From: Clostridia bacterium
GTDB lineage: Bacteria > Bacillota > Clostridia > Oscillospirales > CAG-272
NCBI GenBank assembly: GCA_017517035.1
Contig: JAFXAN010000083.1
Span: 27,853-91,852 of the forward strand
Direction of reading: 5' to 3'
DNA: 64,000 nucleotides
In this document: positions 3-51,784 of the stretch, piece by piece
Numbering within the stretch: the first letter of the stretch is position 1
How the letters are laid out: each line of letters opens with the position of its first letter
Notes under the pieces: model-generated
Database searches by the model: none
What the model was told of the DNA's origin: nothing
What the model saw: only the letters and a program-made list of their open reading frames with translations
Position numbers and translations under genes: made by a program

Positions 3-3000
3 ACAATCAAGGCGGTTTCTATGGGAACAGCAACTGTCACCTTCAAGGATAATCATTATCCTATCGTTGTTGAAACAGAGGCTGCTATCTATGATCTCAT
101 TCTCTCGAATGAAGCTCTTGATCAAAACTTTGTTTCCGGATTTGCTAAATCCATCTATGCAAGAACGGCTCATACAGCATATTCCGGACTTACATGGGAT
201 GATCTTGCTTCGGAGATCAACGCAGGTAACATAATCAAGGGAAGAACATATTATCTTATTTCAAATTCCGATAATAGCCTTTCCTATACTGCCGATGAAA
301 TGTATCAGCTCTATGAGAACTCGGACGCTGATTATCTCGTTATGATCTCGGGTGATTCGTTTACAGAATCGGATGTTGCTATGTATGCAATGCAGCTTCA
401 GAGCGAAACGTATCTGAATGCTTATGTTTGCGCAAACGGCGATCTTACCGCTTTTGATGCGGGCAGAGCTGCGGGAAACAATATAGTTTCGATAATCGAG
501 AAGAACAAGCCTGTTCTTGATGCTGGTTTTAAGGTTTATAAGCAGGGCGGAGAAGAGCTCAAGGTGCTTTCAGTGATTCCGAGCGGCGAGGTGCTTTCTT
601 TTGCAGTAGTTCCGAATAATTTGTATAATGCTGTAAAATCCGTTGATGTTTCGGTCGTAGGCTTGGATTTTGATAAAGCTACAATGACTATTATCGGTGA
701 TGACGATGGCGGAATCATTTATATCAACGGTACAGAATACACGGTATATGCAGATGCAGTTGCTTCCGGAAATGTGGAAGGTTATTCTTGGCTTATTGAT
801 AATGACGGCAAGCTTACCGTTCTTTCTGAGGGCGTAATTTCCGATGCAAGCTATCCATGGGCAAGCTACGCCGCTTCCATCAAGGAAATTGAGCTTTCAG
901 GCGGTGTTACCGAAGTCGGTTCGGGAGCTTTTGCGGGCGTAGTGAATCTTACAAAGATCACACTTCCTTATACGCTTACCGAAATTGCAGATGATGCTGT
1001 AAGCGGAGCTTCGACATACTCGGTATTTGGCTTTGAAACAAATGCTGCATCTGTTGCTTTCGCAGAAAATAACGGTCAGTCATTCACATCCCTCGGTGCT
1101 TGCGGTTCGGCAGGTACATCCCTTATGTGGGAATATAAGGACGGCGTGCTTTATATTGACGGAAACGGAACCACGGTAAACTCCGGTGTCAGTGGTTATA
1201 ACAAGCAGTCGGAGTCTTCATGGTATGCCTATTATTCCGATATCACAAAGGTGGTTATCGGCAAGAATGTAACAACTATAGGTGCTTATGCATTCCACAA
1301 TATGAAAGCACTTACGACCGTTGAGATTACCGAAAATCTGAAATGTATATCAAATGCTGCATTTGAAAACAGTACTGCACTTAACTGCATTTATATTGCG
1401 GGTAACGAAGCTGTCAGCGGAACGGTTGATCTTTCCTATGTTACAACTTTGTCAGGCGGTTTTCAGTTTGATGGCTGCAGCAAGATTGCTAATATTATTT
1501 TTTCCGAAAATCTTACATCGCAGATCGGTGATAAGTTTATCGGTTATAATAGCTCGATAAAGACGCTCACTGTACCTGCAAGTGTACCTTCTATACATAA
1601 GAGAGCACTCTATAGAAATACCGCTCTCAAGGAGCTTACTATTCTCGGTTTTTCAACAGCACTTCCGTCTGATATGTTCACTTATGATAACAACACAACA
1701 TCTGTGGATGTAATTTACGGTATATCCGGATCTCCTGCTCATACATTTGCTGTCAACAATGGTATTACTTTCTATGATCTCACAGGAGACCAATATGACG
1801 GTGAAATCACTCTTAACGGTGCTTGCGGAACAGAAGTTTATTTTAAGCTCATCGAAAACGATATTGCTGATACCTATACGCTCTATTTCTATGGTACAGG
1901 TACAGAAATAGTCAGCGGAAATACAGCAACAGAGCTGAAGGCACCTTGGGCATCTTACGCCGATAAGATCACAGATGTGGTCTATCGCGGTGCGATTGAG
2001 AGCATGGGTGCATATAACCTTGTCGGACTTTCAAATCTTAAGTCTATAAAGCTCGAGAACTGTGCATTTACAAATATTTGCGAGAATGCTTTTGCTGGCT
2101 CGGGTATTTCGGGACTTTTTGAAATTTCTGAGGATGTTACGGCAATTGATGCTAATGCTTTTGCCGGACTTTCGAATCTTGATACCATTGTTATTCATGG
2201 TTCTTCGGTCGAAATTGATGCTGATGCATTTGCAGGCTGTGGCATAACAACCGTTTACGGTTATTACGGTTCAACTGTCCAGACCTTTGCTTCAACGATC
2301 GGAGCAACTTTTAAGAATATCAACGAGTATCTTCCCGTAGCAACAGGTTATCTTTATGCAACATGGAATAATTCACCTACAGTTAACACAAAATGGTACT
2401 ATGATAAGGCAACAAAAACCCTTTCATTTGAATCCCTCGCAAGTGCAGGGGCATGGAATGAGTGCGGAAATACAACACATGGTACTGATAACAAGACAGC
2501 ATGGTCGATCTTCAAAAATGAGATTGAAAAGGTAATTATCGGTCCCGGTCTTAAGAAGGTTTCGGGCTCTGCGTTTAAGGATCATACTGCTCTTAAGGTT
2601 GTTGAGTTAACAGGTGAAATCGGAGAAATTGACGGAAGTGCTTTCTCCGGATGTACAAATCTTGATACAATATATCTTAAGGGTAATGTTCCCGTCAAAG
2701 GAATTGCAGACCTTCACCGTGTCGGTAATCTTGAAAAGAGTTCATCTGTTTTCGTGAGATGTGCATTTGATAAGGTTATTTTCAGTGCTACTGAAACTGC
2801 AATCATGGAAGGCAGTTTCGCAAATTCTGCTGTAACGACTGTTATCGGCAATTCTGAAACAACAGAGACCCTTGCAACATCCATCGGCGCAACTGTGACC
2901 AGAGGTTATTCCGAGAGCGGAATGATCTGGACTCTTGATGGCGCAACTCTTACTGTATATGCAGGTGAAACACCTACTGCTGTAGCGGCTTGGTCTGATT

Positions 3001-6000
3001 TTGCAGATACTGTCACGAAGATCGTGTTTGAAAGCGAAAGTGATATTTCCACTCTCAACATTGGTGTTTTTGACGGCTTTGCAAACCTCGAAGAGGTACT
3101 CTTTAAGTGCGATGCTCCAGCATATGCTGCTGCGTCTTGTTTTGGAACAAATAATATCACGGTTTATTATGCAAAGGGCATAAGCAGCTTCTCCTCTCCC
3201 AATTGGAACGGTTATATTTGCCTTGAAGAGGGAAGTACCCTTGGAATCGTTGCAAGCGGACTTTGTAAAGAGGGCGGATATTCCTGGGCAATTGACGATC
3301 TGGGAACTCTCACCATCAGCGGCGAGGGCAACGGTGTTCTTGAATTTACCGAGGTTCCCAATTGGGAACCCGAAGCGATCAAGAGAATTGCTTGGTATTC
3401 ACACCGTTCTCTTATCAAAAAGGTTGTTATTGAAGAAGATACGCAGATCACAAGGGTTATTGCGTATGGTCTTTCCAATCTTCCTAACTGTACAACAATG
3501 ATCTTCCCCACAACACTTACCGACCTTAGCGGATATAATGTTCTTTGCAGCTTGCCAAACCTTAATACTATCGCTGTTCAGGGCAATGATGTCATCGAGG
3601 GGGTAATTGACCTTAGAAATGTTACAAAGCTTAATAGCCAGCTTTTCGAGTCATCCTTTAAGAATGTTAAGCCGGTTATTTATATCTCCGCTAATCCACA
3701 GATCTCTATTACAAAATGGGGTGCAGGATGCTCGGAAATGACAATTGTAACATATCCGACGTCCACAACAGCTACCCTTGTCAGAACTCTTGCAAAGCAG
3801 CAAATGGGTACTGCTCCCAGTAAATATCTTCCTAACAAGATCACTCTCAAATACTATACTGCCGAGCAGGATACAACTCTTGTAAGAAGCGGTTCTCAAA
3901 CATCAAGTGGCGGTCACATGGATTGGACTTTTGATGATGCTACAGGTACTCTTACATTTACAAAGGGCGCTGGAGCAACAGGTTGGAACGAGTTCCTTTA
4001 TAACTCCGGATCAACGGTTCTTAAAAATTGGTTATCTATCTGGAAGGATGCAATTCTTCATGTCAATGTTGCTTCTTCTTTCAGTAAATTCCAGGTGAAC
4101 AATAACATGCCCAGCCCGTTCAAAAACGCTGTTAACCTTATAAGCGTTAAATTCTCCGGAAATTCTTCTCTTGAATTCCAGTTTAGCGGCTCGGGCGGTT
4201 TATTTGAGGGCTGTGAATCTCTGACAACCTTCGGATTCAGCAATAGCTTCAATGAAGGAGTTATTGATATTTCCGGAATTTCGAAGTATTCCGGAGGTGG
4301 GGCAAATAGCAGTATGTTCAAGGGTTGTACATCAATAAAATCGGTCAAAATGCGCTCAAGCGCTCCCGATGCATCATCCGGAATAACTAACAATAAATGG
4401 ATCACTAACTCCATGTTTAGTGGATGTACTTCACTTCGCAGTATTGAAATACCGGCATGGATAACAAAGATTGATGCAAATGCATTTGCAGGTTGCACAT
4501 CTCTTACAAGTGTAACTCTTAATTCTTTACCCGAGATTGCAGCGATTTCTGCCTTCCCCGATAATGAGGGACAGAATCTTATTATCAAGTGTCCCGATCA
4601 GACAACAGCGGATGCTGTAAATGCGCTTGGATATACTTATACTAAGGCTGTTTACATTGATCTTGGTAATTTCGTGAGTGCTATCACAATGGAAGGCTAT
4701 GCTGTAAGACTTAAGGAATACAACGGTCTCCGCGGCTTGTTCAGCTTTGACTATACCATCAAGACAGCAAATGAAGGATATGGATTCAAGCTTGTCGAAT
4801 ACGGAGCACTTCTCTCATCTCAGGCTACTTATCTTAATTACGGTTGTGAGCTGGCACTTGCTGATGGTGTATATGTAACTCCTACAAAGGGCGTTGTTAA
4901 AAAGCCTGTTTATTCGGGTGACAAGATAGTCGGAAACACACTTTCGACAAGCACTGCGGATTCTGTTGATTTTGCGGCATCTGTTGTTAAGTACAATAGC
5001 AATTTCAAGCAGAATGTGTATATCTGCGGTTATGAGATCTGGGAAGATCTTTCCGGCGAAAGAATCATCGTATATACAGATTGTCCCGATGATACATATG
5101 ATTTCACAAATATCTATCAGATCTGCCTTAATCTTTACAGAGACGGTTATGTGAATGCAGAAAACGATACCGAAGGCATTGTTTGGGGCATTCTTTCCGA
5201 AAACGGCGCTGTAACACTCACAGCAGGTACTGATTATACCTATAACGAGGGACAGACAGACCTTAATGGCAATTCTCTTGCTGAAAAGTTTGTATTTAAG
5301 GATGTTCCCGCTGTTTCTCAGAAAACATCCGCTACGGATATAATCTTTACCGAATCCGGATTGACCATCACCCTTCTTGAAGATGGTGATAGATATGTTG
5401 CAGTATATAGAGGCGAAGGCGCAGTACCTGCGACAAATCCTTGGAGTAAGCTTGGTTCGCATCAGCTTTCATCCAACTTCTGCAATGCTTTAGTTCTTTC
5501 GAAGCTTCCTAATCCGATAATGGCAGCCGGAGCAGCTTCAAAAATTAAAACTATCGTTCTCGATTATGGCGTAACAGAGGTTAATGCTGCCGGATTTGCG
5601 CAGATATCTGTATTGGAAAAGCTTGTATATTCAACTTCACTTACGAAGCTTGGCGGAACAATGTTCGTATCATGTAGTGCTTTGAATACTGCATATTGTG
5701 CTGATGTAACAGACCCCGATTTTGTTCCAAAGAGCAATATTGTTGATTTCAGCAGACTTTCATCTGTTGATGCAAATTATATGTTTGTATCAGCCAAGAA
5801 GATTCAGTATGTTCGACTTCCTTCAAGCATCGGAACCGCTGCAAAAGGAATGTTCAATAACAACACTGCTCTAAAAGCTGTAAGCTGCGGCACAGCAGAG
5901 CTTGTTGATGGTGTTATTGATATGTCCCAGACCGGTATTGTGAATTTTGGCGATTACTCCTTTGCAGGTGTCAATAACATTACAACGCTTAAGCTTCCCG

Positions 6001-6197
6001 AAACCGTAACTACATTCTTCGATGTAAACGGCACAACCGAGAGACACGCTTTTGCTTCTAACTCATCTAATGTTACAAGTGCTTGCGGAATCAGAAATAT
6101 CATTACGGAAAATGAAGTTTCTGCAATTTCCGACTATATCACGAAGTATGGCGAGGCTATGAAGCTGACATATTCTTGGACAAATCAGGAACAATAA
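3..6197 (+). CDS. Giant BspA-type leucine-rich-repeat surface protein; 5' end cut by window edge
   Basis: 6.2-kb ORF. The frame is open from pos 3: no stop lies upstream of the first Met at 21, and no signal peptide follows that Met, so the N-terminus lies outside the window. Many BspA-like LRR units (AFAGCTSLTSVTL, AFSGCTNLDTIYL, AFENSTALNCIYI) alternate with W-x-[IF]D-x-x-G-x-LT beta motifs. Stop TAA 6195-6197. Confidence 0.8.
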   Translation, partial: TIKAVSMGTATVTFKDNHYPIVVETEAAIYDLILSNEALDQNFVSGFAKSIYARTAHTAYSGLTWDDLASEINAGNIIKGRTYYLISNSDNSLSYTADEMYQLYENSDADYLVMISGDSFTESDVAMYAMQLQSETYLNAYVCANGDLTAFDAGRAAGNNIVSIIEKNKPVLDAGFKVYKQGGEELKVLSVIPSGEVLSFAVVPNNLYNAVKSVDVSVVGLDFDKATMTIIGDDDGGIIYINGTEYTVYADAVASGNVEGYSWLIDNDGKLTVLSEGVISDASYPWASYAASIKEIELSGGVTEVGSGAFAGVVNLTKITLPYTLTEIADDAVSGASTYSVFGFETNAASVAFAENNGQSFTSLGACGSAGTSLMWEYKDGVLYIDGNGTTVNSGVSGYNKQSESSWYAYYSDITKVVIGKNVTTIGAYAFHNMKALTTVEITENLKCISNAAFENSTALNCIYIAGNEAVSGTVDLSYVTTLSGGFQFDGCSKIANIIFSENLTSQIGDKFIGYNSSIKTLTVPASVPSIHKRALYRNTALKELTILGFSTALPSDMFTYDNNTTSVDVIYGISGSPAHTFAVNNGITFYDLTGDQYDGEITLNGACGTEVYFKLIENDIADTYTLYFYGTGTEIVSGNTATELKAPWASYADKITDVVYRGAIESMGAYNLVGLSNLKSIKLENCAFTNICENAFAGSGISGLFEISEDVTAIDANAFAGLSNLDTIVIHGSSVEIDADAFAGCGITTVYGYYGSTVQTFASTIGATFKNINEYLPVATGYLYATWNNSPTVNTKWYYDKATKTLSFESLASAGAWNECGNTTHGTDNKTAWSIFKNEIEKVIIGPGLKKVSGSAFKDHTALKVVELTGEIGEIDGSAFSGCTNLDTIYLKGNVPVKGIADLHRVGNLEKSSSVFVRCAFDKVIFSATETAIMEGSFANSAVTTVIGNSETTETLATSIGATVTRGYSESGMIWTLDGATLTVYAGETPTAVAAWSDFADTVTKIVFESESDISTLNIGVFDGFANLEEVLFKCDAPAYAAASCFGTNNITVYYAKGISSFSSPNWNGYICLEEGSTLGIVASGLCKEGGYSWAIDDLGTLTISGEGNGVLEFTEVPNWEPEAIKRIAWYSHRSLIKKVVIEEDTQITRVIAYGLSNLPNCTTMIFPTTLTDLSGYNVLCSLPNLNTIAVQGNDVIEGVIDLRNVTKLNSQLFESSFKNVKPVIYISANPQISITKWGAGCSEMTIVTYPTSTTATLVRTLAKQQMGTAPSKYLPNKITLKYYTAEQDTTLVRSGSQTSSGGHMDWTFDDATGTLTFTKGAGATGWNEFLYNSGSTVLKNWLSIWKDAILHVNVASSFSKFQVNNNMPSPFKNAVNLISVKFSGNSSLEFQFSGSGGLFEGCESLTTFGFSNSFNEGVIDISGISKYSGGGANSSMFKGCTSIKSVKMRSSAPDASSGITNNKWITNSMFSGCTSLRSIEIPAWITKIDANAFAGCTSLTSVTLNSLPEIAAISAFPDNEGQNLIIKCPDQTTADAVNALGYTYTKAVYIDLGNFVSAITMEGYAVRLKEYNGLRGLFSFDYTIKTANEGYGFKLVEYGALLSSQATYLNYGCELALADGVYVTPTKGVVKKPVYSGDKIVGNTLSTSTADSVDFAASVVKYNSNFKQNVYICGYEIWEDLSGERIIVYTDCPDDTYDFTNIYQICLNLYRDGYVNAENDTEGIVWGILSENGAVTLTAGTDYTYNEGQTDLNGNSLAEKFVFKDVPAVSQKTSATDIIFTESGLTITLLEDGDRYVAVYRGEGAVPATNPWSKLGSHQLSSNFCNALVLSKLPNPIMAAGAASKIKTIVLDYGVTEVNAAGFAQISVLEKLVYSTSLTKLGGTMFVSCSALNTAYCADVTDPDFVPKSNIVDFSRLSSVDANYMFVSAKKIQYVRLPSSIGTAAKGMFNNNTALKAVSCGTAELVDGVIDMSQTGIVNFGDYSFAGVNNITTLKLPETVTTFFDVNGTTERHAFASNSSNVTSACGIRNIITENEVSAISDYITKYGEAMKLTYSWTNQEQ

Positions 6198-6203
6198 AAA
6201 CTT

Positions 6204-6236
6204 GGCGGATTCGCAATGCGAATCCGCCATTTTGTT
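6204..6236. terminator. Bidirectional intrinsic terminator between convergent genes
   Basis: Perfect 12-bp palindrome GGCGGATTCGCA-A-TGCGAATCCGCC (6204-6228), with an A-run before and ATTTTGTTT after. Confidence 0.75.
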
Positions 6237-7117
6237 TATCTTGTAATCTTTCTTGTCTTGATTTCTTTGAAGTATTCTTTTGTGGTTCCGGCACTAAGCT
6301 CGGGAATATAATGATATGATTTTTTTAGCTCATCTTCAGATGGATAAGAATTATAGAATCCTCCGCAAAGACCACTGTGATCACTTCCACCACTAATGAA
6401 AAGCCCTTTCTCAAGAGCAATTTTGAGCGCTCGATCTTTTTCTTCTTCTGTAAGGTCCGGGTGGAACACCTCAAGACCTACAATGCCTAGTGAAATCAGC
6501 TCATCCATATCGTCAAGGCAGTTGTGCGGATGAGCAACTATAGCAAATCCTCCCGCTGCCTTTATAAGCTCTATAAGCTCTCCCAGGGGTTTGAAATCAT
6601 AGCATGGCGGAAACAGATTTCTCTGCTTTTCGAAATTTTCCATAAACCATTGCATGTAGTTTTCTTGCTTCACAAGACCTTTTTCAATCATGGCATTATA
6701 AACATGATTATTGCAAAGCCACGGAATGCCACTGTTATACACGAGAACCTCTTCCCATGTAATGCCTAAAATTCCACCGTTTGAAACTGCCATATCGAAG
6801 CATTTCTTTGTGTTGTCCGTCTGTCTTTCAGCCATTTCCGAGAGATATTTTTTCATTTCGGGATATTCCGGATCAAAATCAAAGCCTACAATGTGGTAAG
6901 GCTTGGGATCATAAACCGAAAACTCAACTCCGAAAATACATTCAAGCTCTTCTTCCTTGCAAGCTTTTTCAAGCTCGGGAAATGCGCTTGCGGTATCGTG
7001 GTCAGTGATCGCCAAAGCTTGGTAACCTTCGGCCTTAGCAATTTTCACAAGCTCTCGTGGCGAATATACACCATCAGAGTGGGTCGAATGGGTATGTAAA
7101 TTAGCATAGAACTTCAT
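6236..7117 (-). CDS. PHP-domain metal-dependent phosphoesterase
   Basis: ORF-track entry 6236..7300 reads through a tRNA. The real start is its Met62 (ATG 7115-7117, with AAGAAAGG upstream). PHP signature MKFYANLHTHSTHSDG...AITDHD, and C-terminal GGSDHSG. Confidence 0.8.
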   Translation of the reverse strand: MKFYANLHTHSTHSDGVYSPRELVKIAKAEGYQALAITDHDTASAFPELEKACKEEELECIFGVEFSVYDPKPYHIVGFDFDPEYPEMKKYLSEMAERQTDNTKKCFDMAVSNGGILGITWEEVLVYNSGIPWLCNNHVYNAMIEKGLVKQENYMQWFMENFEKQRNLFPPCYDFKPLGELIELIKAAGGFAIVAHPHNCLDDMDELISLGIVGLEVFHPDLTEEEKDRALKIALEKGLFISGGSDHSGLCGGFYNSYPSEDELKKSYHYIPELSAGTTKEYFKEIKTRKITR

Positions 7118-7140
7118 ATAGTTACCTTTCTTAACACTAA

Positions 7141-7191
7141 AGATAAAAAACAAGCAGTATCTACACCCGGACGGGTGCAGGCACTGCCTGC
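7141..7191 (-). terminator. Two adjacent GC-rich hairpins plus U-tract directly after tRNA-Leu(CAG); possible terminator or processing site
   Basis: On the minus strand: GCAGGC-AGT-GCCTGC (7177-7191), CACCCG-TC-CGGGTG (7164-7177), then TAGATACTGCTTGTTTTTT. The U-run sits 13 nt after the second stem, so this is not a textbook terminator. Confidence 0.35.
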
Positions 7192-7278
7192 TGGTGCGGG
7201 TAACAGGACTTGAACCTGCACAGCCTTGCGACCATAAGAACCTGAATCTTACGCGTCTGCCAATTCCGCCACACCCGC
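7192..7278 (-). tRNA. trnL: tRNA-Leu (anticodon CAG), type II with long variable arm, CCA encoded
   Basis: Reverse complement reads GCGGGTG-TG-GCGGAATTGGCAGACGCG-TAAGA-TTCAGGT-TCTTA-TGGTCGCAAGGCTGT-GCAGGTTCAAGTCCTGT-TACCCGC-ACCA. The acceptor stem is 7 bp, the anticodon loop is TT-CAG-GT, and a T-loop GGTTCAAGTCC is present. Confidence 0.93.
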
Positions 7279-7308
7279 ATATTAACCGTTGATTTCTCAA
7301 CGGGAAAT

Positions 7309-8682: not shown

Positions 8683-9149
8683 AAGTTTTTATCCAATCGT
8701 TTGTTATTTTTTTTATTATTCCAGGCATATATCAGCTTAACCAATGCAGTAACAACAACGACACCAAGTGCAAGTGCCATAGCTAATTTAAGTGTGATAA
8801 TTCCGTTTATAAGAAAGCTTTCAAGATTGCCTTCGAAGGCGTTAGCCATTGTATAATACAGAGACCCTCCGGGAATCAACGGAATGAGCGCTGTTGTAAT
8901 GAAAGTTGTGGTAGGGGTTTTAAGTACTCTTGCCATTATTTCTGAATAAAGTGTTGTCGTCGCCGAAACAATAAAATATCTTATAGGTTCACTTTCGATC
9001 ATAAATTCCAAAATCAAAAACAAGCTCCAGGATAAAAATCCGCCAAGTGCCGCAAAAGCAAGTTTTTTTCCTCTAATGTTATATAATATTGCAAATCCAA
9101 AGGAACCGATAAAAGCGGCAAAAATTTGCATTATTTCACTGTTCATCAT
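8679..9149 (-). CDS. Threonine/serine-exporter-family membrane protein, small subunit (DUF3815-like)
   Basis: 156 aa and very hydrophobic (4-5 TM). Overlaps the upstream partner by 4 nt, the standard pairing with a DUF1212 protein. Confidence 0.65.
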   Translation of the reverse strand: MMNSEIMQIFAAFIGSFGFAILYNIRGKKLAFAALGGFLSWSLFLILEFMIESEPIRYFIVSATTTLYSEIMARVLKTPTTTFITTALIPLIPGGSLYYTMANAFEGNLESFLINGIITLKLAMALALGVVVVTALVKLIYAWNNKKNNKRLDKNL

Positions 9150-9898
9150 AGCGAAGCACCTCCTGATAAGAAAATAAACAGAAAATATCCCGCTGCAATA
9201 GCAAGTGCTGCCAGAACCGCCTCGATAAGCCTGAGAAGTCCCGAAACACTGTCGCCCACAAACAGATCGCGAAGTGCGTTCGTAAGCCCAACACCCGGCA
9301 CAAGAAGCATTATGTTTCCTATCATAACCTTATCAATGCTTTGTATAAATCCGATCTTCATTGCTGTGAATGATAAAACTGTGGCAATAAATGCACATAT
9401 GAGCTTACCGAATATTTTGTTGATATCAAATTTGTCAATAAATAGAACAACAAATCTCAATACTATACCCAATATGGCAGAGACGAGGGCATCATTAATT
9501 TTACCTCCAAAGAAAAGCGCAAATGCACCTGCAATAAATACATAGGAGATCACTTCAGCCCATAAAGGATATTTTTTTGCTTTTGTTATTTCGGCAAATC
9601 TGAGCTTAATATCATCAAATGTTAGTTTTTTGCCGCAAATATCCCTTGATAGCTGATTTAGCTTGTGCAGCATATCAATATCGGTGCCGGAGTTCTTAAT
9701 GCGCCTGGTCTGAGTAAAAGAGCCTTCCGGTGTGTGTATTGTCACGACCATGCTCGAGGTTATGATAAAAACATCAATATCTGTAGCGCCGAGAGCCAAA
9801 CCCATTCTTTCTATGCTGTCCTCAACACGGTGTATTTCAGCACCGCAGAGAAGCATCTGCTCACCGATATCCATAATAGTATCAAAGTGTTCCTTCAT
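9146..9898 (-). CDS. Threonine/serine-exporter-family membrane protein, large subunit (ThrE/DUF1212-like)
   Basis: The ORF-track entry extends to 10048 through a tRNA. The real start is its Met51 (ATG 9896-9898, GGAGG 8 nt upstream). Signature MLLCGAEIHRVEDSIERM followed by 5 TM segments. Confidence 0.7.
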   Translation of the reverse strand: MKEHFDTIMDIGEQMLLCGAEIHRVEDSIERMGLALGATDIDVFIITSSMVVTIHTPEGSFTQTRRIKNSGTDIDMLHKLNQLSRDICGKKLTFDDIKLRFAEITKAKKYPLWAEVISYVFIAGAFALFFGGKINDALVSAILGIVLRFVVLFIDKFDINKIFGKLICAFIATVLSFTAMKIGFIQSIDKVMIGNIMLLVPGVGLTNALRDLFVGDSVSGLLRLIEAVLAALAIAAGYFLFIFLSGGASL

Positions 9899-9914
9899 TT
9901 TTACCTCCAAAATC

Positions 9915-9950
9915 AACAAAAAAGACAGGCTTCGAAGAAACCTGTCTTTT
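9915..9950 (-). terminator. Intrinsic terminator abutting the 3' CCA of tRNA-Leu(GAG)
   Basis: Minus strand: AAAAAGACAGGTTTC-TTC-GAAGCCTGTCTTTTTT. The stem is about 10 bp with one mismatch and is followed by U6. It lies 16 nt upstream of the RBS of the next gene. Confidence 0.7.
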
Positions 9951-10035
9951 TGGTGCGAGAAACGGGACTTGAACCCGTACGGTGTGAACCACACGCCCCT
10001 CAAACGTGCGCGTCTGCCAGTTCCGCCACTCTCGC
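9951..10035 (-). tRNA. trnL: tRNA-Leu (anticodon GAG), type II, CCA encoded
   Basis: Reverse complement reads GCGAGAG-TG-GCGGAACTGGCAGACGCG-CACGT-TTGAGGG-GCGTG-TGGTTCACACCGTAC-GGGTTCAAGTCCCG-TTTCTCGC-ACCA. The anticodon loop is TT-GAG-GG. Confidence 0.92.
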
Positions 10036-10071
10036 ATGCCGTAAGCAACTGTGTTGCTCACAACGCTGACT

Positions 10072-28291: not shown

Positions 28292-31200
28292 TTACTGAAA
28301 ACTATAATTTAAGTACGGTTTTTCTTCAATGTATTTGTCGATCAGCTTCTGTATTCCGGTCATGTCATCCTCTGAAGCAAACACATCGGCATAGTTGGTT
28401 GTCGCACCGTTATATGTATAATATGTGGAGATAAATTCATCAAATGTGCGATATTGATAATCCGAGCTATAGGAATCGTCTCCGCAGAAATAATACGGCT
28501 GTCCGACAGCACTTTCGCCTGTGATGATGCTATATGTCATAAGGGTTGTGATATAACCTGTAAGCTGGTTGGGATGATATCCGTCATTTGCGCTCTGGTT
28601 TACAACAAATGTGTTTTTGTTATATTCAAGTGTCGCTCCGGGGACTTCAACATCACCGTTCACAATGTCTGCAATTATCTTGCCCCAATCTATGACAGTT
28701 ACGCCCTTTTCACCAAGCGTTTTTAAGCTCTCAAGGAATACTGTATCGGGGCCTGTTGCTCTGTTGTCAATTCCATGAGCCGATGACTGTGCCATAAGAT
28801 AGAATTTTACATTTGGATTTGCTTCTTTAAAGAAGTCTATCATAACATCCAGCCATTCGATATAGTTTGTCTGACCTCTTGTGCCATAACAAGCAACAAC
28901 ATAGTCATAATACGGATCGGTAAGGTATGATGCGTGGTCGACTCCATCGCAACCTCTGTTTGCGGAACAGCTTCCGGAGAAGAAATCGTCAAGCAGATGA
29001 TTTCCTATAGTCCAGTTTGTAACATTCACATCCATTCCGTTCGCCTTGCAAAGCTGGTAGAAATAACCTTCGTCGTTCATTCTTCCCTCTTGCGTGAGTG
29101 TGTCTGTTGCATATTTGCAAAGAACCGTGTTACCATAGAAAATATGCGAATTTCCAATGAAAATTATTCTCTTTCCGTCCAGCGGAACAGAATTTATTAT
29201 ATCCTTCACAATACTATCCTTATCCATTTCATCGGTAACTATTCCGTTTTTCCACATTTCATAGCTGATATCATATAGACTTACCTCATCATAATCTGTT
29301 CCTGCGCAATCGGTATATGTGATATTTATATTACCGTCTGAATCCTGCCAAACTTCGTATGCACAGAAATAAACATCAGACTGATAATTCTTTTCGTCGA
29401 AATTAACGACCGTCACAGCAAACTCTGTCTTGTTTTCTGAATCGGAAAGATATTTACCGACAAAGCCGTCATCATTATTCCAAACTTCTGTTTTAATTGC
29501 GCCGACAGCGGTATACCCACCGTTTCCATCCGAGATAAGAACGCAATTTGACTTGTTTTCGGCAGAAGCAACAATCGTTCCGTATTCAAGCAATGTAAAG
29601 CCTTTTGCTTCATTTTCATTGACGATTCCCCGGCTTACCGAAAACAGTCCGCGCAGACCGTTATAATCCGCTATGCGAACGCTAAAGCCGTCCATTGTTA
29701 CTGCATTATAAAATTTTCCGGGATAAACTACATCGGTAAATTCAAAATCACCAAAAAGATCTGCGATCTCGCTGTTGCTGACATTTATCACAAGTCCTTC
29801 AATATCGGGGAACGCATTTTCGGCAACAGATGTTAACGAAGCAGATGCTGCTGTTACACTGCGAAGTGAAGTGCATCCCGCAAAGGCCTTTGACTGAATA
29901 GAAGTTATGTATGTTGGCAAGGTTATGTCAACAAGTGAGGTGCATCCTTCAAACATTGAAGCAAAGATATAGGGAGTTGCGGTCTTATCTGCGCTGTCCG
30001 AAATTGATGATGTTCTGAAAATTACTTTTTTAATGGATGAACATCCTCTGAACATATAATCGGGTTCCTGAACTGTCCAATATTGCAAGCCCTTAAGGTT
30101 GATTTCGCCTTCCTTAAAGTTTGATCCCCAACCAAGTGTTGTGAGAGAGGGATTTCCTTCAAACACACCACCGGAAACTGCGTCTTGTATTTGGTTATAA
30201 GCACTATCTATTTTTATCGAAAGAAGATTTGGCATATTGGCAAAGAAAAATTCATCGTCGCTATTTTGACAATAGATCATTCCGCCGCTTGCGCTTGTAA
30301 CGGTTTCAATGTGAATAATAGCATCCCGCCATATCTGCTTCCATTCATAGATGGTGCTTCTGCTGTCAAGGCAAAGATTTGCACTCCATCCGCTTGTAAC
30401 AGAGCTTGTGATCGTAAGCTTCCCTGTTTCTTCATCAAATGTCCATGTATAAGCTTTACCAAAGGTATTGCTACCGTCTCTCACAAGTGACGGATCGTAT
30501 TCCTTTGAATAGTATTCAAGCTTAATATTTGCGTCAGTATTCTTTATAAGCAAGCGAACACTTGTTGCAGCATCACAGGTAGGATAAGAAACAAAGGTTA
30601 TTTGATCACAATCGGGGATAAGAATACCTGAAACGGAAATACTCTTTGAAAGCATTATTCTCGGTGAAGCTTCACCGAAAGAACCGTAGAAAGCACTTGA
30701 GCTGATTGAAGTGGCATTTGAAAGATCCACTTCTTCAAGCTTTGGATTATTTGCAAAGATATATTCGGAGCTTATCGCTGTAAAGGACTCAGGAAGAACT
30801 ATCGACTTAACATTTGGAAGATTCGCAAAAGCATAATCATCTGCCGATGTTATAGAAGCTTCTACCGAAATTGCAGAAATATCATTTGCAAATTCCATCC
30901 AGGGCATTTCGCCGTCATATGTGAGTGCTCCCGAGCCTTCGCCCGTGATTTTCAGAGTTCCTTCGCCATCAATTGTCCAGCTATATTCGCCAACGGTGCC
31001 GCTTTCGCTTACAAGTGCGATTATTTTTGTTTGCTCATAAGCAAAAGTGCTCTTGATTGCGTTTGCATCTTCACGGGTCTGTGTGTAAACAACGAGATTT
31101 GCTCTGTCATCAAAAACTTGACCTGAAGTTGAAAATCCGGTTGCGTTGATCGTAACCTCATTGAGAGCGGAACAGCCGCTAAAGGCTCCTGTACCCAATG

Positions 31201-32482
31201 TTACAACATTGCTCGGAATGATAATACTCTCAAGTGATGTGCATCCCGAAAAAGCATTTGCTCGTATCTCTGTTGTATAGGTGGGGATTGTTATTTCCTT
31301 AAGTGATATACAGTTGTTAAACATAGAAGCGTATATGTAGGTATATGTATTAGAACCGCTTATCAATCCTGCACTCGTTAGAATAACCTTCTTAATAGAG
31401 CTGCAACCGTCAAACATATTATCAAGATTACCGCCTGTAAGGTTCTTAAGACCTTTAAGGCTCACAACATTTTCGGTGAGCGTACTATTGAAAGAAACTG
31501 TTGTCAGAGAAGGACAACCACTGAAGAAACCTCCTGAAGCCTGCTCCTTTATTTCGGTGATACCATTCATATGAACGCTTACAAGGTTAGGGAGATTGGC
31601 AAACATACATTCTCCGGCATTACTGCTGTTATAAAATGCACAATAGGAGAAATTTGAAAATTCAACGCTGATAATTGCGTCTCTCCATATTTCTTTCCAC
31701 GCCTTAAGGCTTGCAGTGGAGCTGAATGTAATAGATGTCCATGATGTTGAAGTGCGGGTGATAGTCAGCTTACCTGTTGCTGTGTCAATGTTCCAACTGT
31801 ATTTACTTTCAGCACCTGCTCTCACCAAAGATGAGTCATATTCTTCCGAAAAATAGTCAAGAGTGATATTTGCTTTTTCTGTTTTTATAAGTGAACGAAC
31901 ACTTGTTGCAGCAGTACATGTCGGATATGTAACAAAAGTAATGTTTCCGCAGCCTTCGGAAAGATCCAAAGCCGAAACAGAAAGATCCTTTGCCAAATAA
32001 ATTATTGGTAAAACACCGTCGAATGAGCCTGCAAACGCACTTGCGCTCAAAGCTTTTGCGCCTGTAAGGTCAATAACGCCGCTGTTTGTGCTTTCGCTGA
32101 TCTTAATCTGGGTAAGATTGGAATTGTTAGCGAAAAGAAAATCCGAATTGAAATCCGTAAATGTCGCCGGGAGCGTTACGGAGGTCAAATTGGGTAAATT
32201 TGAAAATGCATAAGGTGATGCCGAGACTATTTCGGCATCGACAATGATTTCGGAAATAGAATCTGCATTTTCGAGCCACGGTATCATAGTCAGGTCATCT
32301 GATGTGGGAATGCTCGAAAAATCAAGGATGCCGTCTCCTTCGCCGCTTATCGTTAAAATGCCATTTTCATCTATCGAATAATAATAATCATTTCCTACTG
32401 CATCCTCAGCATAGGCAGAGAAAACGAGTGCAGATGCGATGATTAAAGCAATGGCAAAAACTGACATTATGTGTTTTTTCAT
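28292..32482 (-). CDS. Secreted BspA-type LRR protein with internally duplicated module and C-terminal SGNH/DUF4886-like esterase domain
   Basis: Signal peptide MKKHIMSVFAIALIIASALVFSAYA/ED. LRR units include AFSGCTSLESIIIP and AFAGCTSLRSVTA. The C-terminal part has RIIFIGNSHIFYG (block I-like) and SANDGYHPN (block V D-x-x-H-like). Confidence 0.8.
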   Translation of the reverse strand: MKKHIMSVFAIALIIASALVFSAYAEDAVGNDYYYSIDENGILTISGEGDGILDFSSIPTSDDLTMIPWLENADSISEIIVDAEIVSASPYAFSNLPNLTSVTLPATFTDFNSDFLFANNSNLTQIKISESTNSGVIDLTGAKALSASAFAGSFDGVLPIIYLAKDLSVSALDLSEGCGNITFVTYPTCTAATSVRSLIKTEKANITLDYFSEEYDSSLVRAGAESKYSWNIDTATGKLTITRTSTSWTSITFSSTASLKAWKEIWRDAIISVEFSNFSYCAFYNSSNAGECMFANLPNLVSVHMNGITEIKEQASGGFFSGCPSLTTVSFNSTLTENVVSLKGLKNLTGGNLDNMFDGCSSIKKVILTSAGLISGSNTYTYIYASMFNNCISLKEITIPTYTTEIRANAFSGCTSLESIIIPSNVVTLGTGAFSGCSALNEVTINATGFSTSGQVFDDRANLVVYTQTREDANAIKSTFAYEQTKIIALVSESGTVGEYSWTIDGEGTLKITGEGSGALTYDGEMPWMEFANDISAISVEASITSADDYAFANLPNVKSIVLPESFTAISSEYIFANNPKLEEVDLSNATSISSSAFYGSFGEASPRIMLSKSISVSGILIPDCDQITFVSYPTCDAATSVRLLIKNTDANIKLEYYSKEYDPSLVRDGSNTFGKAYTWTFDEETGKLTITSSVTSGWSANLCLDSRSTIYEWKQIWRDAIIHIETVTSASGGMIYCQNSDDEFFFANMPNLLSIKIDSAYNQIQDAVSGGVFEGNPSLTTLGWGSNFKEGEINLKGLQYWTVQEPDYMFRGCSSIKKVIFRTSSISDSADKTATPYIFASMFEGCTSLVDITLPTYITSIQSKAFAGCTSLRSVTAASASLTSVAENAFPDIEGLVINVSNSEIADLFGDFEFTDVVYPGKFYNAVTMDGFSVRIADYNGLRGLFSVSRGIVNENEAKGFTLLEYGTIVASAENKSNCVLISDGNGGYTAVGAIKTEVWNNDDGFVGKYLSDSENKTEFAVTVVNFDEKNYQSDVYFCAYEVWQDSDGNINITYTDCAGTDYDEVSLYDISYEMWKNGIVTDEMDKDSIVKDIINSVPLDGKRIIFIGNSHIFYGNTVLCKYATDTLTQEGRMNDEGYFYQLCKANGMDVNVTNWTIGNHLLDDFFSGSCSANRGCDGVDHASYLTDPYYDYVVACYGTRGQTNYIEWLDVMIDFFKEANPNVKFYLMAQSSAHGIDNRATGPDTVFLESLKTLGEKGVTVIDWGKIIADIVNGDVEVPGATLEYNKNTFVVNQSANDGYHPNQLTGYITTLMTYSIITGESAVGQPYYFCGDDSYSSDYQYRTFDEFISTYYTYNGATTNYADVFASEDDMTGIQKLIDKYIEEKPYLNYSFQ

Positions 32483-48353: not shown

Positions 48354-48713
48354 ATGAAAAAAATTATAATTTATGTAATTGCAGCTTTGAGCGTATTCTT
48401 GGCATTTTTCTCTATTTCTTTTTCACTTGAAAATACGATGAAATATAACCGATTGAGCGCAAGCTCAGCAAATCAGCTCTCAAATATAAAAACGAGACTA
48501 ACGAGACTTGAGGAGAAAGACGAGTGCTTTGTCGTACTTATTGAAAGTAACGGTATTATTGGGATTTTCGACAGTGAGAGAAGATATCTTCTCGGAACTA
48601 TTAATGTGGATGTGAAAACGCTTCCCGAAGCTGACCGCAGAAGGCTGCTCGAAGGTATTGAGGTCAAGGATTCGGCAAAATTCATTTCACTTTTCGAAGA
48701 TTATTCAAGTTGA
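48354..48713 (+). CDS. Small membrane-anchored hypothetical protein (possibly BofC-C-terminal-like)
   Basis: 119 aa with an N-terminal TM. IGIFD...LPEADRRRLLEGIEV...LFEDYSS resembles what I recall of BofC-type domains. This is a weak call. Confidence 0.5.
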   Translation: MKKIIIYVIAALSVFLAFFSISFSLENTMKYNRLSASSANQLSNIKTRLTRLEEKDECFVVLIESNGIIGIFDSERRYLLGTINVDVKTLPEADRRRLLEGIEVKDSAKFISLFEDYSS

Positions 48714-48724
48714 ATATGTTTTTT

Positions 48725-48747
48725 GGGGTTGCAGATAATGCAACCCC
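48725..48747. terminator. Hairpin between convergent genes
   Basis: GGGGTTGCA-GATAA-TGCAACCCC, with the T-run on the 5' side only. Confidence 0.4.
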
Positions 48748-48752
48748 ATAAT

Positions 48753-49613
48753 TTATGCGTCAGCAAGCATTTTTTCAAAAAGCTGGAGCTTATTCTGCGA
48801 AACCTCGTAAGCCCCTTTATAGTCTTCGGTTTCCTTACAACTCTTTTCAAGGTCATCAAGAATAAAATAGATTATCGGCTTAGGCAAGCTGTTATCTTCG
48901 CAAATTTGAGACAGAAGACCGATCGCAGCTTCATAGTTACCGTTATCTACCATATCTATTGCTACGAGGGCATGATGATAGTTAACATTGCTCCATTCAA
49001 GATCTTTGTATGATTTTATTCCCATAAGGCAATCAGAAAACTTGCAAATGTCGCATAAGCATACGGATGCACTGCCGCTGTCCGGCACATCAATTGTTAA
49101 AGTCGGTGAAATCTTCGACATAAACTCAACTTGTGTTTTTATACAAGAAACGATACTGCCGACATCGAATACTGTGAGGGCTGAATATTCAAGTGCTTCC
49201 TCAAACATTTTTGCCGCCTTTTTCAGCTCTCCGTGATAAAAACCGGAGCAACCGATGTGATACGCCGCATATGCAAGCATATATGTTATTTCATTATCCG
49301 AACCGTCAGCATAACAGGAAAGACATAGATCCCGGCAGATTTCCCATTCTTCACTTTTAAAAGAGCTTATGATGTTGGGATAATTTGCGTATTTTTTATA
49401 GTACATTTCGTTGGCATCGCCGTCTGAAAGAAGATATCCGGGCTGAACACCGAGACGGTTAGCCAGATATATAAGGCTTTGAAGGGATGGGAGAGCTGCT
49501 CCGTTTTCTATTCTGCTAAGCATATTTCTTGTTATAACATCGCCCGCAAGCTCTTTTTGCGTCATCAGCTTCGATGTGCGTAAATTTTTGATTTTTTCTC
49601 CGATATTCATCAT
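48753..49613 (-). CDS. XRE-family HTH regulator with helical (TPR-like) Cys-rich C-terminal domain
   Basis: IGEKIKNLRTSKLMTQKELAGDVITRNMLSRIENGAALPSLQSLIYLANRLGV (HTH_XRE). 286 aa with 11 Cys, including VCLCDICKFSDC. The ATG overlaps the upstream stop (ATGA). Confidence 0.8.
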   Translation of the reverse strand: MMNIGEKIKNLRTSKLMTQKELAGDVITRNMLSRIENGAALPSLQSLIYLANRLGVQPGYLLSDGDANEMYYKKYANYPNIISSFKSEEWEICRDLCLSCYADGSDNEITYMLAYAAYHIGCSGFYHGELKKAAKMFEEALEYSALTVFDVGSIVSCIKTQVEFMSKISPTLTIDVPDSGSASVCLCDICKFSDCLMGIKSYKDLEWSNVNYHHALVAIDMVDNGNYEAAIGLLSQICEDNSLPKPIIYFILDDLEKSCKETEDYKGAYEVSQNKLQLFEKMLADA

Positions 49614-50140
49614 TTAAAAATGCTTTTGCCCTCGGAATCTATTCCGACGATCAAAGCAAAATCCTCAATTTCCATTTTTTTAACCGATTCACAGCCAAGC
49701 TCGGGGAATGCGATCACATCACATTTTTTTATCGATTTTGAGGCGAGTGCTCCTGCACCTCCGATGGCACAAAAATATATAGCACCATGCGCCTTCATAG
49801 CGTTTATAACATCATTATTTCTCTGCCCCTTGCCGATCATAGCCACAAGCCCGTTTTCTATCAAACGGGGCGAAAAGGAATCCATTCTCGATGATGTTGT
49901 GGGACCGCAGGAACCGACAGCCATGCCATTCTTTGCAGGTGTGGGACCAGCAAAATAGATAACCGCATCACGAAGCTCGAACGGCAACGTTTCGCCTTTG
50001 TCCATAAGCGCAAAAATTCTTTTGTGCGCCGCATCTCTTGCTGTGTATATCGTGCCCGAAAGCAGAACAGAATCACCTGCATGGAGATTCCCAAGCTCAT
50101 CTCTGAGCTGATTTGTATGAATTTTCTTAATATTGCTCAT
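49610..50140 (-). CDS. Fe-S hydro-lyase beta subunit (FumA C-terminal / TtdB family), no alpha partner nearby
   Basis: GDSVLLSGTIYTARDAAHKR, YFAGPTP, GSCGPTTSSRMD, IGKGQR. Confidence 0.8.
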   Translation of the reverse strand: MSNIKKIHTNQLRDELGNLHAGDSVLLSGTIYTARDAAHKRIFALMDKGETLPFELRDAVIYFAGPTPAKNGMAVGSCGPTTSSRMDSFSPRLIENGLVAMIGKGQRNNDVINAMKAHGAIYFCAIGGAGALASKSIKKCDVIAFPELGCESVKKMEIEDFALIVGIDSEGKSIFK

Positions 50141-51045
50141 TATTTTCTGATTCGCTTAACCTGTTCCGGTGTTGCTTTCTTTTGCTCCGAGGATGAAGTG
50201 CTTTTTATACCGTTCAGATCCTCCTTGACCCCGCGCCAAATCGAATCCTCATAGCTTTTTATTTTGATTTCGGAATTTCCGGCTTTGCTTCGGATGTCCT
50301 CAAGGGCTTTTTCGATCACACTATATGTATAAGAAGTGACGGCTGAAACATCTCTTCGGCATTCAGCGGCAGCAAGCGACACCTTTGAAAAAATACTTTC
50401 TATGGCTCTCTTTGAAGTTTCTTCAATATTCCTTCGTTTTTCTTCAAGCTCTTTTTCCGCCTTCACTTCAAGCAGACGGGCTTCTTCCCGTGCCGCAGAA
50501 ATGATCTCCTCTGCAGTGTTTTTTGCCGAAATCAAGGTTTCGCCTATGCTGTTTGAGGTTTTATCATATTGAGCCGCTTTTTTCACAAGCTCATCGTATT
50601 TTTCTTTTGTTATCTCAATTTCGGAACTTTGATTTTTAAGTTCTTCGATTTCTGCTTTTAGTGCTTCTATTTCTTCGAACTGCTTTGCGATGATAGCTTC
50701 CTGTCTATCAAAATCTTCCTTTGATATTGCTTCATTCTCGGGTGTTATTTCGGAATTGGTTTGAATAGAAATACTGTCTTCAAGAAGCTTCTTTTCATCG
50801 GTCAGTTTTGCTATCTCGGCATCCTTTTCGGCAATTATATTCTTTGCATTTTCAAGCTCTGCCTCTGCGGCTTCAATTCTATTTATGTATTCATTTACTT
50901 CGTTTTCGGCTCTTTCAACTCTTTCGCTTGCAGCCGCTTCCCTCTCCAAAAGCTCAGCGGAGGAACGAACAAGATAATTGTTGACATCACTCTTGTTATA
51001 TCCACCAATAGCGCTTCTGAAAACTACATTCTTAATATCGGACAT
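50140..51045 (-). CDS. DivIVA-domain coiled-coil protein
   Basis: The N-terminus FRSAIGGYNKSDVNNYL fits the DivIVA motif, followed by ~250 aa of Glu/Lys/Ala-rich heptad-like sequence. GGAGG RBS. Confidence 0.75.
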   Translation of the reverse strand: MSDIKNVVFRSAIGGYNKSDVNNYLVRSSAELLEREAAASERVERAENEVNEYINRIEAAEAELENAKNIIAEKDAEIAKLTDEKKLLEDSISIQTNSEITPENEAISKEDFDRQEAIIAKQFEEIEALKAEIEELKNQSSEIEITKEKYDELVKKAAQYDKTSNSIGETLISAKNTAEEIISAAREEARLLEVKAEKELEEKRRNIEETSKRAIESIFSKVSLAAAECRRDVSAVTSYTYSVIEKALEDIRSKAGNSEIKIKSYEDSIWRGVKEDLNGIKSTSSSEQKKATPEQVKRIRK

Positions 51046-51083: not shown

Positions 51084-51112
51084 ATAATAACACATTTTTT
51101 TGAAATAATCAA
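51084..51112 (-). promoter_or_regulatory. Sigma-A-type promoter of the DivIVA/beta-subunit/XRE operon
   Basis: Minus strand: TTGATT (51107-51112), 17 nt, TGT-TATTAT (51084-51092). Confidence 0.55.
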
Positions 51113-51171: not shown

Positions 51172-51205
51172 TGAAAAAAGTCAGACACTTTTGGAGGAAA
51201 AACAA

Positions 51206-51784
51206 ATGGAATTACTTGAAAAAAAGATACTTGAATGCGGTGAGCTTCGCGACGGCGGTATATTGAAGGTTGACAGTTTTCTCAATCATCAGATAGATAT
51301 TGAACTTATGATCGAGATAGGCAAAGAATTCGCAAAGCTTTTTGCTGATAAAAAAGTTAATAAAATCCTTACGATTGAGGCTTCAGGCATTGCTATTGCT
51401 TCTATTACTGCACAATTTTTCGGAAATGTTCCCGTTGTTTTTGCAAAAAAGACCGAATCTCTCAATCTCAGCGGTGATGTTTATTCAACCGATATCCATT
51501 CATATACGAAAAATAAGGACTACACAGCCAGAATTGACAAAAAATACATAAACGAAAATGACCGTGTCCTTATCATCGACGATTTCCTTGCTAACGGTGA
51601 GGCTGCAATGGGACTTATGCGTCTTGTGAAAATGGCAGGCGCTGAGGTTTCGGGTGTTGGAATTTGCATAGAAAAAGCATTCCAGCGCGGCGGCAATCTG
51701 ATAAGAGAAAACGGAACTTCTCTTCATTCCCTTGCCATTGTTGATGTAAAAGAAGACGGATCCATTTCATTCCTCAGAAAATGA
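51206..51784 (+). CDS. xpt: Xanthine phosphoribosyltransferase
   Basis: MELLEKKILECG...LKVDSFLNHQID...ILTIEASGIA...VLIIDDFLANGEA. ATG 51206 after GGAGG. Confidence 0.9.
   Translation: MELLEKKILECGELRDGGILKVDSFLNHQIDIELMIEIGKEFAKLFADKKVNKILTIEASGIAIASITAQFFGNVPVVFAKKTESLNLSGDVYSTDIHSYTKNKDYTARIDKKYINENDRVLIIDDFLANGEAAMGLMRLVKMAGAEVSGVGICIEKAFQRGGNLIRENGTSLHSLAIVDVKEDGSISFLRK

Follow-up and report, generated by a model that had tools for sequence, protein, structure and literature searches.

Why should the gene for a beta subunit of an iron-sulfur (Fe-S) hydro-lyase lie between those of a DivIVA-family coiled-coil protein and of a helix-turn-helix (HTH) regulator, joined to both by overlapping codons? 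The question is raised by a 64-kb stretch of Clostridia bacterium DNA (contig JAFXAN010000083.1; hereafter the window). On its minus strand the genes of a 301-aa DivIVA-family protein (50140-51045), a 176-aa beta subunit of the Fumerase_C family (49610-50140) and a 286-aa, RRNPP-like HTH_XRE regulator (48753-49613) follow one another, the first being assigned from open reading frame (ORF) and profile calls and the other two from ORF, profile and fold calls. Gene order in relatives indicates that this combination is selected and is not a chance juxtaposition, because the complete trio is kept down to 71% beta identity and the DivIVA-beta pair is found in 33 of 42 species-level loci. As to function, we give an even chance of being right to the reading that beta is the catalytic subunit of a split-gene hydro-lyase whose alpha subunit is encoded elsewhere, its synthesis being coupled to that of a DivIVA-like scaffold, as is that of the RRNPP-like regulator.

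The initial annotation described the three genes as stitched together behind a single promoter candidate, and the sequence bears this out. The TAA stop of the DivIVA gene and the ATG of the beta gene have one base in common (TAATG, 50142-50138), and the ATG of the regulator overlaps the TGA of beta (ATGA, 49613-49610). The motifs that it quoted are all present in the translated ORFs, although its length of about 250 aa for the DivIVA protein has to be corrected to 301 aa. The promoter candidate, at 51084-51112 on the minus strand, was also found by a consensus scan and is of the sigma-A type, with a -35 hexamer TTGATT (51112-51107), a 17-nt spacer and an extended -10 element TGnTATTAT ending at 51084, which amounts to 9 of 12 consensus matches plus the TG. 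Taken alone it is not significant, since 12 promoter-like sites occur in the region against 7.9±2.8 in shuffled sequences. However, eight relatives, including one without beta (L058) and a distant one (L029), have both hexamers and the TG unchanged within intergenic DNA that has otherwise diverged, and this is good evidence that the site is a real housekeeping-type (sigma-A, extended -10) promoter.

Conservation was examined from the beta gene in 46 distinct loci, with up to 10 kb of flanking sequence available on each side; 42 of them, the window included, group as a single alpha-less clade by neighbour joining. One genome per species was scanned, which gave 41 loci; ORFs were called in these and searched with phmmer, jackhmmer and tblastn, and the loci are labelled mostly as Oscillospiraceae, Acutalibacteraceae, Ruminococcus, or Eubacteriales or Clostridia metagenome-assembled genomes. 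The gene order, which had been proposed to represent a scaffold-regulator module, proved to be conserved. Relatives with 78% and 71% beta identity keep the full trio, together with the genes of a 119-aa protein, PBP1A and TspO; at 64% identity the DivIVA-beta pair is found in a quite different neighbourhood, beside SmpB, and at 62% beta stands alone near ftsQ-ftsZ. Over the whole clade, a DivIVA-domain gene lies directly upstream of beta in 33/42 loci, whose beta proteins are about 51-88% identical to that of the window, and at least 15 of these junctions overlap by 1 or 4 nt, most others being no more than 40 nt apart. An XRE gene directly follows beta in 12/42 loci, mostly with a 4-nt overlap, and four of these 12 have no DivIVA gene. 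The commonest form is thus DivIVA-beta without a regulator (25/42), with the three genes together in 8/42; any other neighbour of beta is common to at most about six loci. Several clade members have neither DivIVA nor XRE beside beta (L014, L022, L039). Among the exceptions, which are suggestive, L047 encodes FtsZ directly upstream of beta and L051 encodes YunB upstream of it, and the beta gene of L031 comes after genes for a DivIVA-like protein and a pseudouridine synthase.

Taking the regulator gene as the starting point, one finds many homologues at 40-55% identity. One of their loci, L058, has the gene order of the window (M14 peptidase, TraX, xpt, DivIVA-like, XRE, 119-aa gene, PBP1A, TspO) without beta, its DivIVA-like and XRE genes overlapping by 4 nt. 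In L061, SpoIVA and xpt are followed by a 198-aa DivIVA-domain protein and then XRE, and L059 has only xpt and XRE. Scanning metagenomes with the alignment of the regulator brought in 13 further loci in which XRE directly follows a DivIVA-domain gene and beta is absent from all 13, so that 15 DivIVA-XRE loci without beta were collected (L058, L061, L065, L072, L073, L076, L081, L082, L084-L086, L089, L095, L096 and L098). All pairwise variants (DivIVA-beta, beta-XRE, DivIVA-XRE) occur, each tightly coupled, and the DivIVA-like gene is the commonest partner. Because DivIVA-XRE pairs without beta are found from the regulator side, the gene orders indicate that the operon is modular and that the trio is one variant of it. 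Some of the beta-less regulators, at 40-55% identity, are nearer to that of the window than some accompanied by beta (27-34%), which would imply repeated loss of beta; the simplest history would be an old DivIVA-beta-XRE operon from which one member or another was lost repeatedly.

The assignment of the middle gene to a hydro-lyase beta subunit is firmly supported. Its product matches PF05683 (Fumerase_C) with E=1.4e-58 and 198 bits (cut-off 22.2) and TIGR00723 with 182.5 bits (cut-off 145), and passes marginally for NF005310, 'Fe-S-containing hydro-lyase' (240.2 bits, cut-off 238), whereas it fails the TtdB equivalog NF006082 (92.9 bits, cut-off 264). An AlphaFold2 (AF2) model with a mean predicted local distance difference test score (pLDDT) of 90.8 was compared in Foldseek with the C-domain of Leishmania major fumarate hydratase (LmFH, 5l2r) and with 2isb, 5dni and 7xky_B, giving template modelling (TM) scores of 0.86-0.92 and root-mean-square deviations of 2.0-3.1 Å; identity to solved family members is 36-40%. 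The protein aligns with the Leishmania C-terminal domain and with archaeal beta subunits, and in the alignment its R35, T81, T82, R85 and K104 correspond to R421, T467, T468, R471 and K491 of LmFH and to R32, T80, T81, R84 and K104 of MjFH beta. These five, on the beta side, are within hydrogen-bonding distance of malate (10.1101/2022.09.03.506457). They are at least 90% conserved across the 42 clade members. A comparison was made with 144 diverse family representatives, taken from an exhaustive HMMER search with 3692 hits: of their 32 positions with at least 90% conservation, every one attains that level in the clade too, and the family motifs RDAAHK, GPTTSxRMD, GKGxR and GGAGA are retained. 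Nonsynonymous divergence (dN) in beta amounts to about half the value for the DivIVA gene and about 0.6 of the value for the regulator. These comparisons indicate that beta is under strong purifying selection and that the beta-side half of the class I fumarate hydratase active site is, to judge from the alignments, fully retained.

Three cysteines of beta stand out in the alpha-less clade: Cys78, Cys124 and Cys150 are conserved in 90%, 90% and 100% of its members, at positions that are mostly A, V, I, G, P or T in other family members (codons at about 49907-49909, 49769-49771 and 49691-49693, minus strand). Cys150, within ELGCE, was considered as a marker of independence from alpha and rejected, given that an 'ELGCEA' beta (P0266) is encoded in a canonical malic enzyme-alpha-beta operon. 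A self-contained Fe-S site formed by the three residues is likewise unsupported: Cys78 and Cys124 are lost jointly in a subclade (L025, L033, L034) that retains the DivIVA-beta pair, and in the AF2 model Cys150 is part of a helix, Cys78 and Cys124 of strands. As regards domain architecture, alpha-beta fusions are common among the homologues, and no DivIVA-beta or beta-XRE fusion was seen among 270 of them. Fumerase_C is fused C-terminally to thymidylate kinase in four independent 50%-cluster representatives, and other fusions involve a GNAT acetyltransferase (two cases), microbial PARG, HATPase_c and a periplasmic-binding domain (fusion proteins P0364, P0372, P0373, P0387, and also P0274, P0292, P0249, P0313 and P0270); these may be real architectures or gene-call fusions.

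Where, then, is the alpha subunit, which binds the cluster? Its absence from the 64 kb had been stated in the initial annotation, and four approaches agree on it. The best tblastn match of the window to E. coli TtdA and three clostridial-type alphas had E=0.58, an iterated hidden Markov model for alpha found no match over the window, PF05681 matched none of the 33 window ORFs scanned directly, and the precomputed Pfam labels for about 20 kb around the trio include no alpha. There is also no alpha gene in the available flanks (up to 10 kb per side) of any of the 42 clade loci. Alpha is found directly upstream of beta only in four loci outside the clade (L043, L050, L053, L063), and the alpha-upstream loci from the one-genome-per-species scan belong to Erysipelotrichaceae, Thomasclavelia and Latescibacterota. 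A profile built from four alpha sequences was uninformative on an alpha of the clade, its listed matches being all near the Erysipelotrichaceae/Thomasclavelia queries (those named were Thomasclavelia, Massilimicrobiota and Coprobacillus).

A lead comes from a related isolate, Caproicibacterium lactatifermentans, whose complete gene table holds exactly two 'fumarate hydratase' genes (PMC9600882, supplementary file 5). One of them, GJQ69_03200, lies in the order ftsQ-ftsZ-corA-fum-czcD (PMC9600882), which is the synteny of clade member L014. The other, GJQ69_03115, is 17 genes away on the far side of the dcw cluster, and the two have similar transcript levels, of 134/91 and 103/89 transcripts per million (PMC9600882). 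Also present in this genome are a malic enzyme and, in the canonical cluster, one DivIVA-domain gene (PMC9600882). If GJQ69_03115 encodes alpha, the clade would simply be the beta half of a split-gene fumarase, and this second, unlinked gene is thus a lead for a split alpha. Both genes are located in a division-gene neighbourhood, flanking the whole dcw cluster (mraZ ... ftsZ) within GJQ69_03100-03205 (PMC9600882).

The first gene of the operon encodes a protein that matches DivIVA (PF05103) with 40.4 bits (cut-off 28) and the N-terminal domain model TIGR03544 with 24.7 bits (cut-off 22). Its 301 residues have a DivIVA domain (VVFRSAIGGYNKSDVNNYL) at the N-terminus, a basic tail at the C-terminus and, in between, a long, variable coiled coil as well as a DivIVA-like helix (IGETLISAKNTAEEIISAAREEA) in the centre. 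The upstream coiled-coil proteins of the 33 clade loci have 182-351 aa and carry the N-terminal motif F/L-x-x-x-F-G-G-F/Y-x-K-x-D-V-x-x-Y; the more distant ones are under the Pfam threshold (18.8-23.5 bits) yet still have this motif. Alignment of 29 of them revealed in common only the N-terminal DivIVA domain, the variable coiled coil and the central DivIVA-type helix. The upstream neighbour of the window gene is the divergent xpt and not the sepF-ylmH-divIVA-ileS cluster. In 16 DivIVA-beta loci the genes upstream differ by locus, and inspection of their sequences, without a domain scan, showed no obvious YlmH- or SepF-like protein.

The regulator has an N-terminal HTH_XRE domain (HTH_3, E=9e-10), tetratricopeptide repeat (TPR) families match 7 of 11 of its orthologues, and its profile finds ComR, PlcR and Rgg in the PDB. 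Its AF2 model is all-helical (pLDDT 93.4), and the top 45 PDB matches in Foldseek are all RRNPP regulators, with low global TM scores (0.20-0.27). By profile and predicted fold, the protein thus looks like an RRNPP-type regulator (PlcR, ComR, Rgg), with HTH_XRE and TPR-like domains. No gene for a short secreted pro-peptide was seen beside it, in an ORF listing of the window that begins at 50 aa and with no dedicated small-ORF search; the regulator gene overlaps the gene upstream, with 40 nt between it and the convergent 119-aa gene, which leaves no intergenic space. The count of 11 cysteines given in the initial annotation was correct, but its proposal of a metal or Fe-S site in a Cys-rich domain is unsupported because the motif is not kept. 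C93 alone is invariant, with conservation of at least 90% for C97, C258 and C259; the CxCxxC stretch VCLCDICKFSDC is already lost in relatives with 63-72% identity, and the domain itself looks like an RRNPP-type TPR domain.

Put together, these results lead us to favour a still-enzymatic beta with alpha elsewhere, because the active-site residues are kept, the gene evolves slowly and a second 'fumarate hydratase' gene exists in a relative. According to this reading, the three genes in the window form one operon under a conserved sigma-A extended -10 promoter. It belongs to a modular family, present in Clostridia labelled mostly as Oscillospiraceae, Acutalibacteraceae or Ruminococcus, in which a DivIVA-like gene is followed by beta, by an RRNPP-like regulator or by both, with codons overlapping or nearly abutting. 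Beta would still serve an Fe-S hydro-lyase of the fumarate/malate type as its mobile swivel subunit, and alpha, with the cluster, would be encoded in a separate transcription unit, which would make this a split-gene enzyme. Beta synthesis would be tied to that of the scaffold because beta is a translationally coupled distal gene of a DivIVA-like operon, and the HTH-TPR regulator would be another product with such coupling to the scaffold gene. Several points weigh against this proposal. It would be unusual for an obligate alpha2beta2 enzyme to have its subunit genes separated throughout a lineage, when canonical relatives couple alpha to beta, and alpha remains unseen, within flanks of up to 10 kb, in every genome that carries a clade beta. 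The product name in C. lactatifermentans is not diagnostic, since GJQ69_03115 could be an alpha (PF05681) or a second beta. The clade has a signature of its own, consisting of an ELGCES[VI]K motif with three clade-specific changes (Cys150, A152S, K154), 90% conservation of Cys78 and Cys124 and loss of an N-terminal 'TTP' motif, and this could mean that beta has changed partner. Finally, a purely metabolic role does not explain the tight and widely kept coupling to the DivIVA-like gene.

A rival explanation takes up the idea of the initial annotation that beta was recruited as an adaptor or sensor. Clade beta would no longer work with an alpha partner; it would use the preserved half-site to bind a C4-dicarboxylate (fumarate, malate or tartrate) and, docked on the DivIVA-like scaffold, would inform the HTH-TPR regulator, or the division or sporulation machinery, of the metabolic state. 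In its favour, none of the 42 loci has alpha in its available flanks (up to 10 kb), the DivIVA-like gene fills the position of alpha with the same kind of codon overlap, the three pairs are all tightly coupled, and beta has its clade-specific substitutions. Division or sporulation genes are also recurrent neighbours (FtsZ in L047, ftsQ-ftsZ in L014, SpoIVA in L061 and L077, YunB in L051 and PBP1A in the window). We nevertheless regard this explanation as rather unlikely. A protein that lost its catalytic partner long ago would not be expected to keep all the catalytic and family-conserved residues with no acceleration of rate. The upstream proteins conserve only generic DivIVA features, with no beta-specific docking motif visible, and beta is dispensable for the DivIVA-XRE pair, the synteny of L058 being identical without it. 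Several clade betas, moreover, are alone without DivIVA or XRE, fusions with either protein are missing among the 270 homologues, and a related isolate has its second 'fumarate hydratase' gene. A bolder version, in which a DivIVA-like hub would tether both an alpha-independent Fumerase_C sensor of fumarate/malate and an RRNPP-type factor from a single mRNA, thereby gating division/sporulation gene expression or chromosome anchoring by central-carbon status, seems to us a distinctly improbable extension.

In a further alternative, the DivIVA-like scaffold and the HTH-TPR regulator would be the core unit, and beta a metabolic passenger that was inserted and often lost. The regulator might then be a DNA-binding protein tethered to, or sequestered at, the pole or septum, like B. 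subtilis RacA with DivIVA, or a transcription factor sequestered at the membrane. The 15 beta-less loci in which XRE comes directly after a DivIVA-domain gene agree with this, as do the beta-less regulators that are closer to that of the window than some accompanied by beta, implying repeated beta loss. However, DivIVA-beta without the regulator is the commonest arrangement, and since this pair persists where all other neighbours have changed, beta is hard to call a passenger; we consider this alternative doubtful. As for a displaced fumarase beta gene placed by chance among unrelated genes and without selective meaning, it would fit the lineages in which beta is alone and the lack of a known pathway common to the three proteins. 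We hold it to be very improbable, given the overlapping adjacency in 33/42 species-level loci with about 51-88% beta identity, which are not near-identical strains and in which the flanking genes have been replaced. A split-gene hydro-lyase coupled to a DivIVA-like scaffold remains the reading that we prefer.

With respect to the surroundings of the operon, a GC-rich hairpin with a 10 bp stem (48724-48748, no strand assigned), located by a terminator-like scan and in the sequence, is likely a shared terminator of the convergent regulator and 119-aa genes, although its T-tract is poor on both strands. The 119-aa gene (48354-48713, plus strand) encodes a protein with an N-terminal membrane anchor or signal and is a syntenic companion in the close clade, kept beside the trio with PBP1A and TspO in six loci and also in the beta-less L058; its product has no Pfam match and hence no family assignment. 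On the other side, a divergent phosphoribosyltransferase gene (51191-51784, plus strand; Pfam label Pribosyltran) is read as xanthine phosphoribosyltransferase (xpt), and has the same divergent placement in L058, L059, L061, L065 and L077, including relatives without beta or DivIVA. A comparison with Rfam revealed no RNA element in the region of the operon. In L058 (4806-5153), L059 (4899-5402) and L061 (4863-5765), the gene directly downstream of XRE encodes a small secreted protein or lipoprotein in which a 'G-x-VWH ... C ... GK-x-x-CK-x-C' motif occurs one to three times; these proteins belong to no Pfam family and no equivalent was seen in the window. The window, which is matched by a 287-kb contig of the metagenome-assembled genome GCA_045540725.1, also encodes two leucine-rich-repeat proteins of the BspA type, both very large: one of 2058 aa (21-6197, plus strand, beginning 20 nt from the window edge) and one of 1396 aa (28292-32482, minus strand). 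ARAGORN identified two minus-strand tRNA-Leu genes, at 7192-7278 (CAG) and 9951-10035 (GAG), only the first of which reaches the Rfam gathering score; the ORFs 6236-7300 and 9146-10048, which overlap them, are probably not genes.

Should beta be only half of a split-gene enzyme, a fumarase, this would matter for how the abundant gut Oscillospiraceae and Acutalibacteraceae are annotated and their metabolism reconstructed: beta genes would be scored without an adjacent alpha, with 'incomplete' fumarase calls as the result. If, on the other hand, the scaffold has a true client in beta or in the regulator, the operon would offer a testable link between central metabolism, a regulator of the peptide-sensor type and the organization of the cell pole or septum, in organisms in which few division or sporulation regulators are known. 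The hub version, if true, would give an Fe-S hydro-lyase subunit a role of a new kind and add a further class to the clients of DivIVA, in spore-forming gut Clostridia. The three protein families are well known individually. Their conserved combination in an operon is without a published description that we could find: the searchable literature yielded none of a conserved DivIVA-beta or DivIVA-XRE/TPR operon, and nothing relevant on DivIVA with fumarate hydratase, on Fumerase_C, on the 'Fe-S-containing hydro-lyase', on orphan beta subunits or on DivIVA with RRNPP or XRE proteins.

Comparison with known systems places each product within a familiar group and its gene in a different context. The beta protein has the same swiveling beta/beta/alpha fold as MjFH alpha/beta (7xky, 5dni), the A. 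fulgidus protein 2isb and the C-domain of L. major FH (5l2r). In two-subunit class I fumarate hydratases, however, alpha is adjacent, while in the 42 clade loci a DivIVA-family gene mostly holds the upstream, coupled position. E. coli TtdA/TtdB, whose genes overlap, provide a beta of the same Pfam family, and the orphan belongs to the TtdB/FumA C-terminal type, but TtdB is the outgroup in the tree and the window protein looks fumarase-like and not TtdB-like. Among Firmicutes, the clients of DivIVA and GpsB include RacA, MinJ and SpoIIE for DivIVA of B. subtilis and PBP1 for GpsB. The first protein of the trio shares with these scaffolds an N-terminal domain of the DivIVA lipid-binding type and a coiled coil, PBP1A is a syntenic neighbour in the window, and the HTH gene beside the scaffold gene recalls the DivIVA-RacA chromosome anchor. 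The putative clients, in contrast, are unrelated in sequence to RacA, MinJ or PBP tails, and their genes are translationally coupled to that of the scaffold, outside the sepF-ylmH-divIVA-ileS cluster. Finally, the regulator resembles the RRNPP proteins of the PlcR-PapR, ComR-ComS, Rgg-SHP and PrgX systems in its HTH_XRE and TPR-like domains, its length (about 285-300 aa) and its top profile and fold matches, and differs from them, beyond a global TM of just 0.20-0.27, in being encoded in an operon with a DivIVA-like gene.

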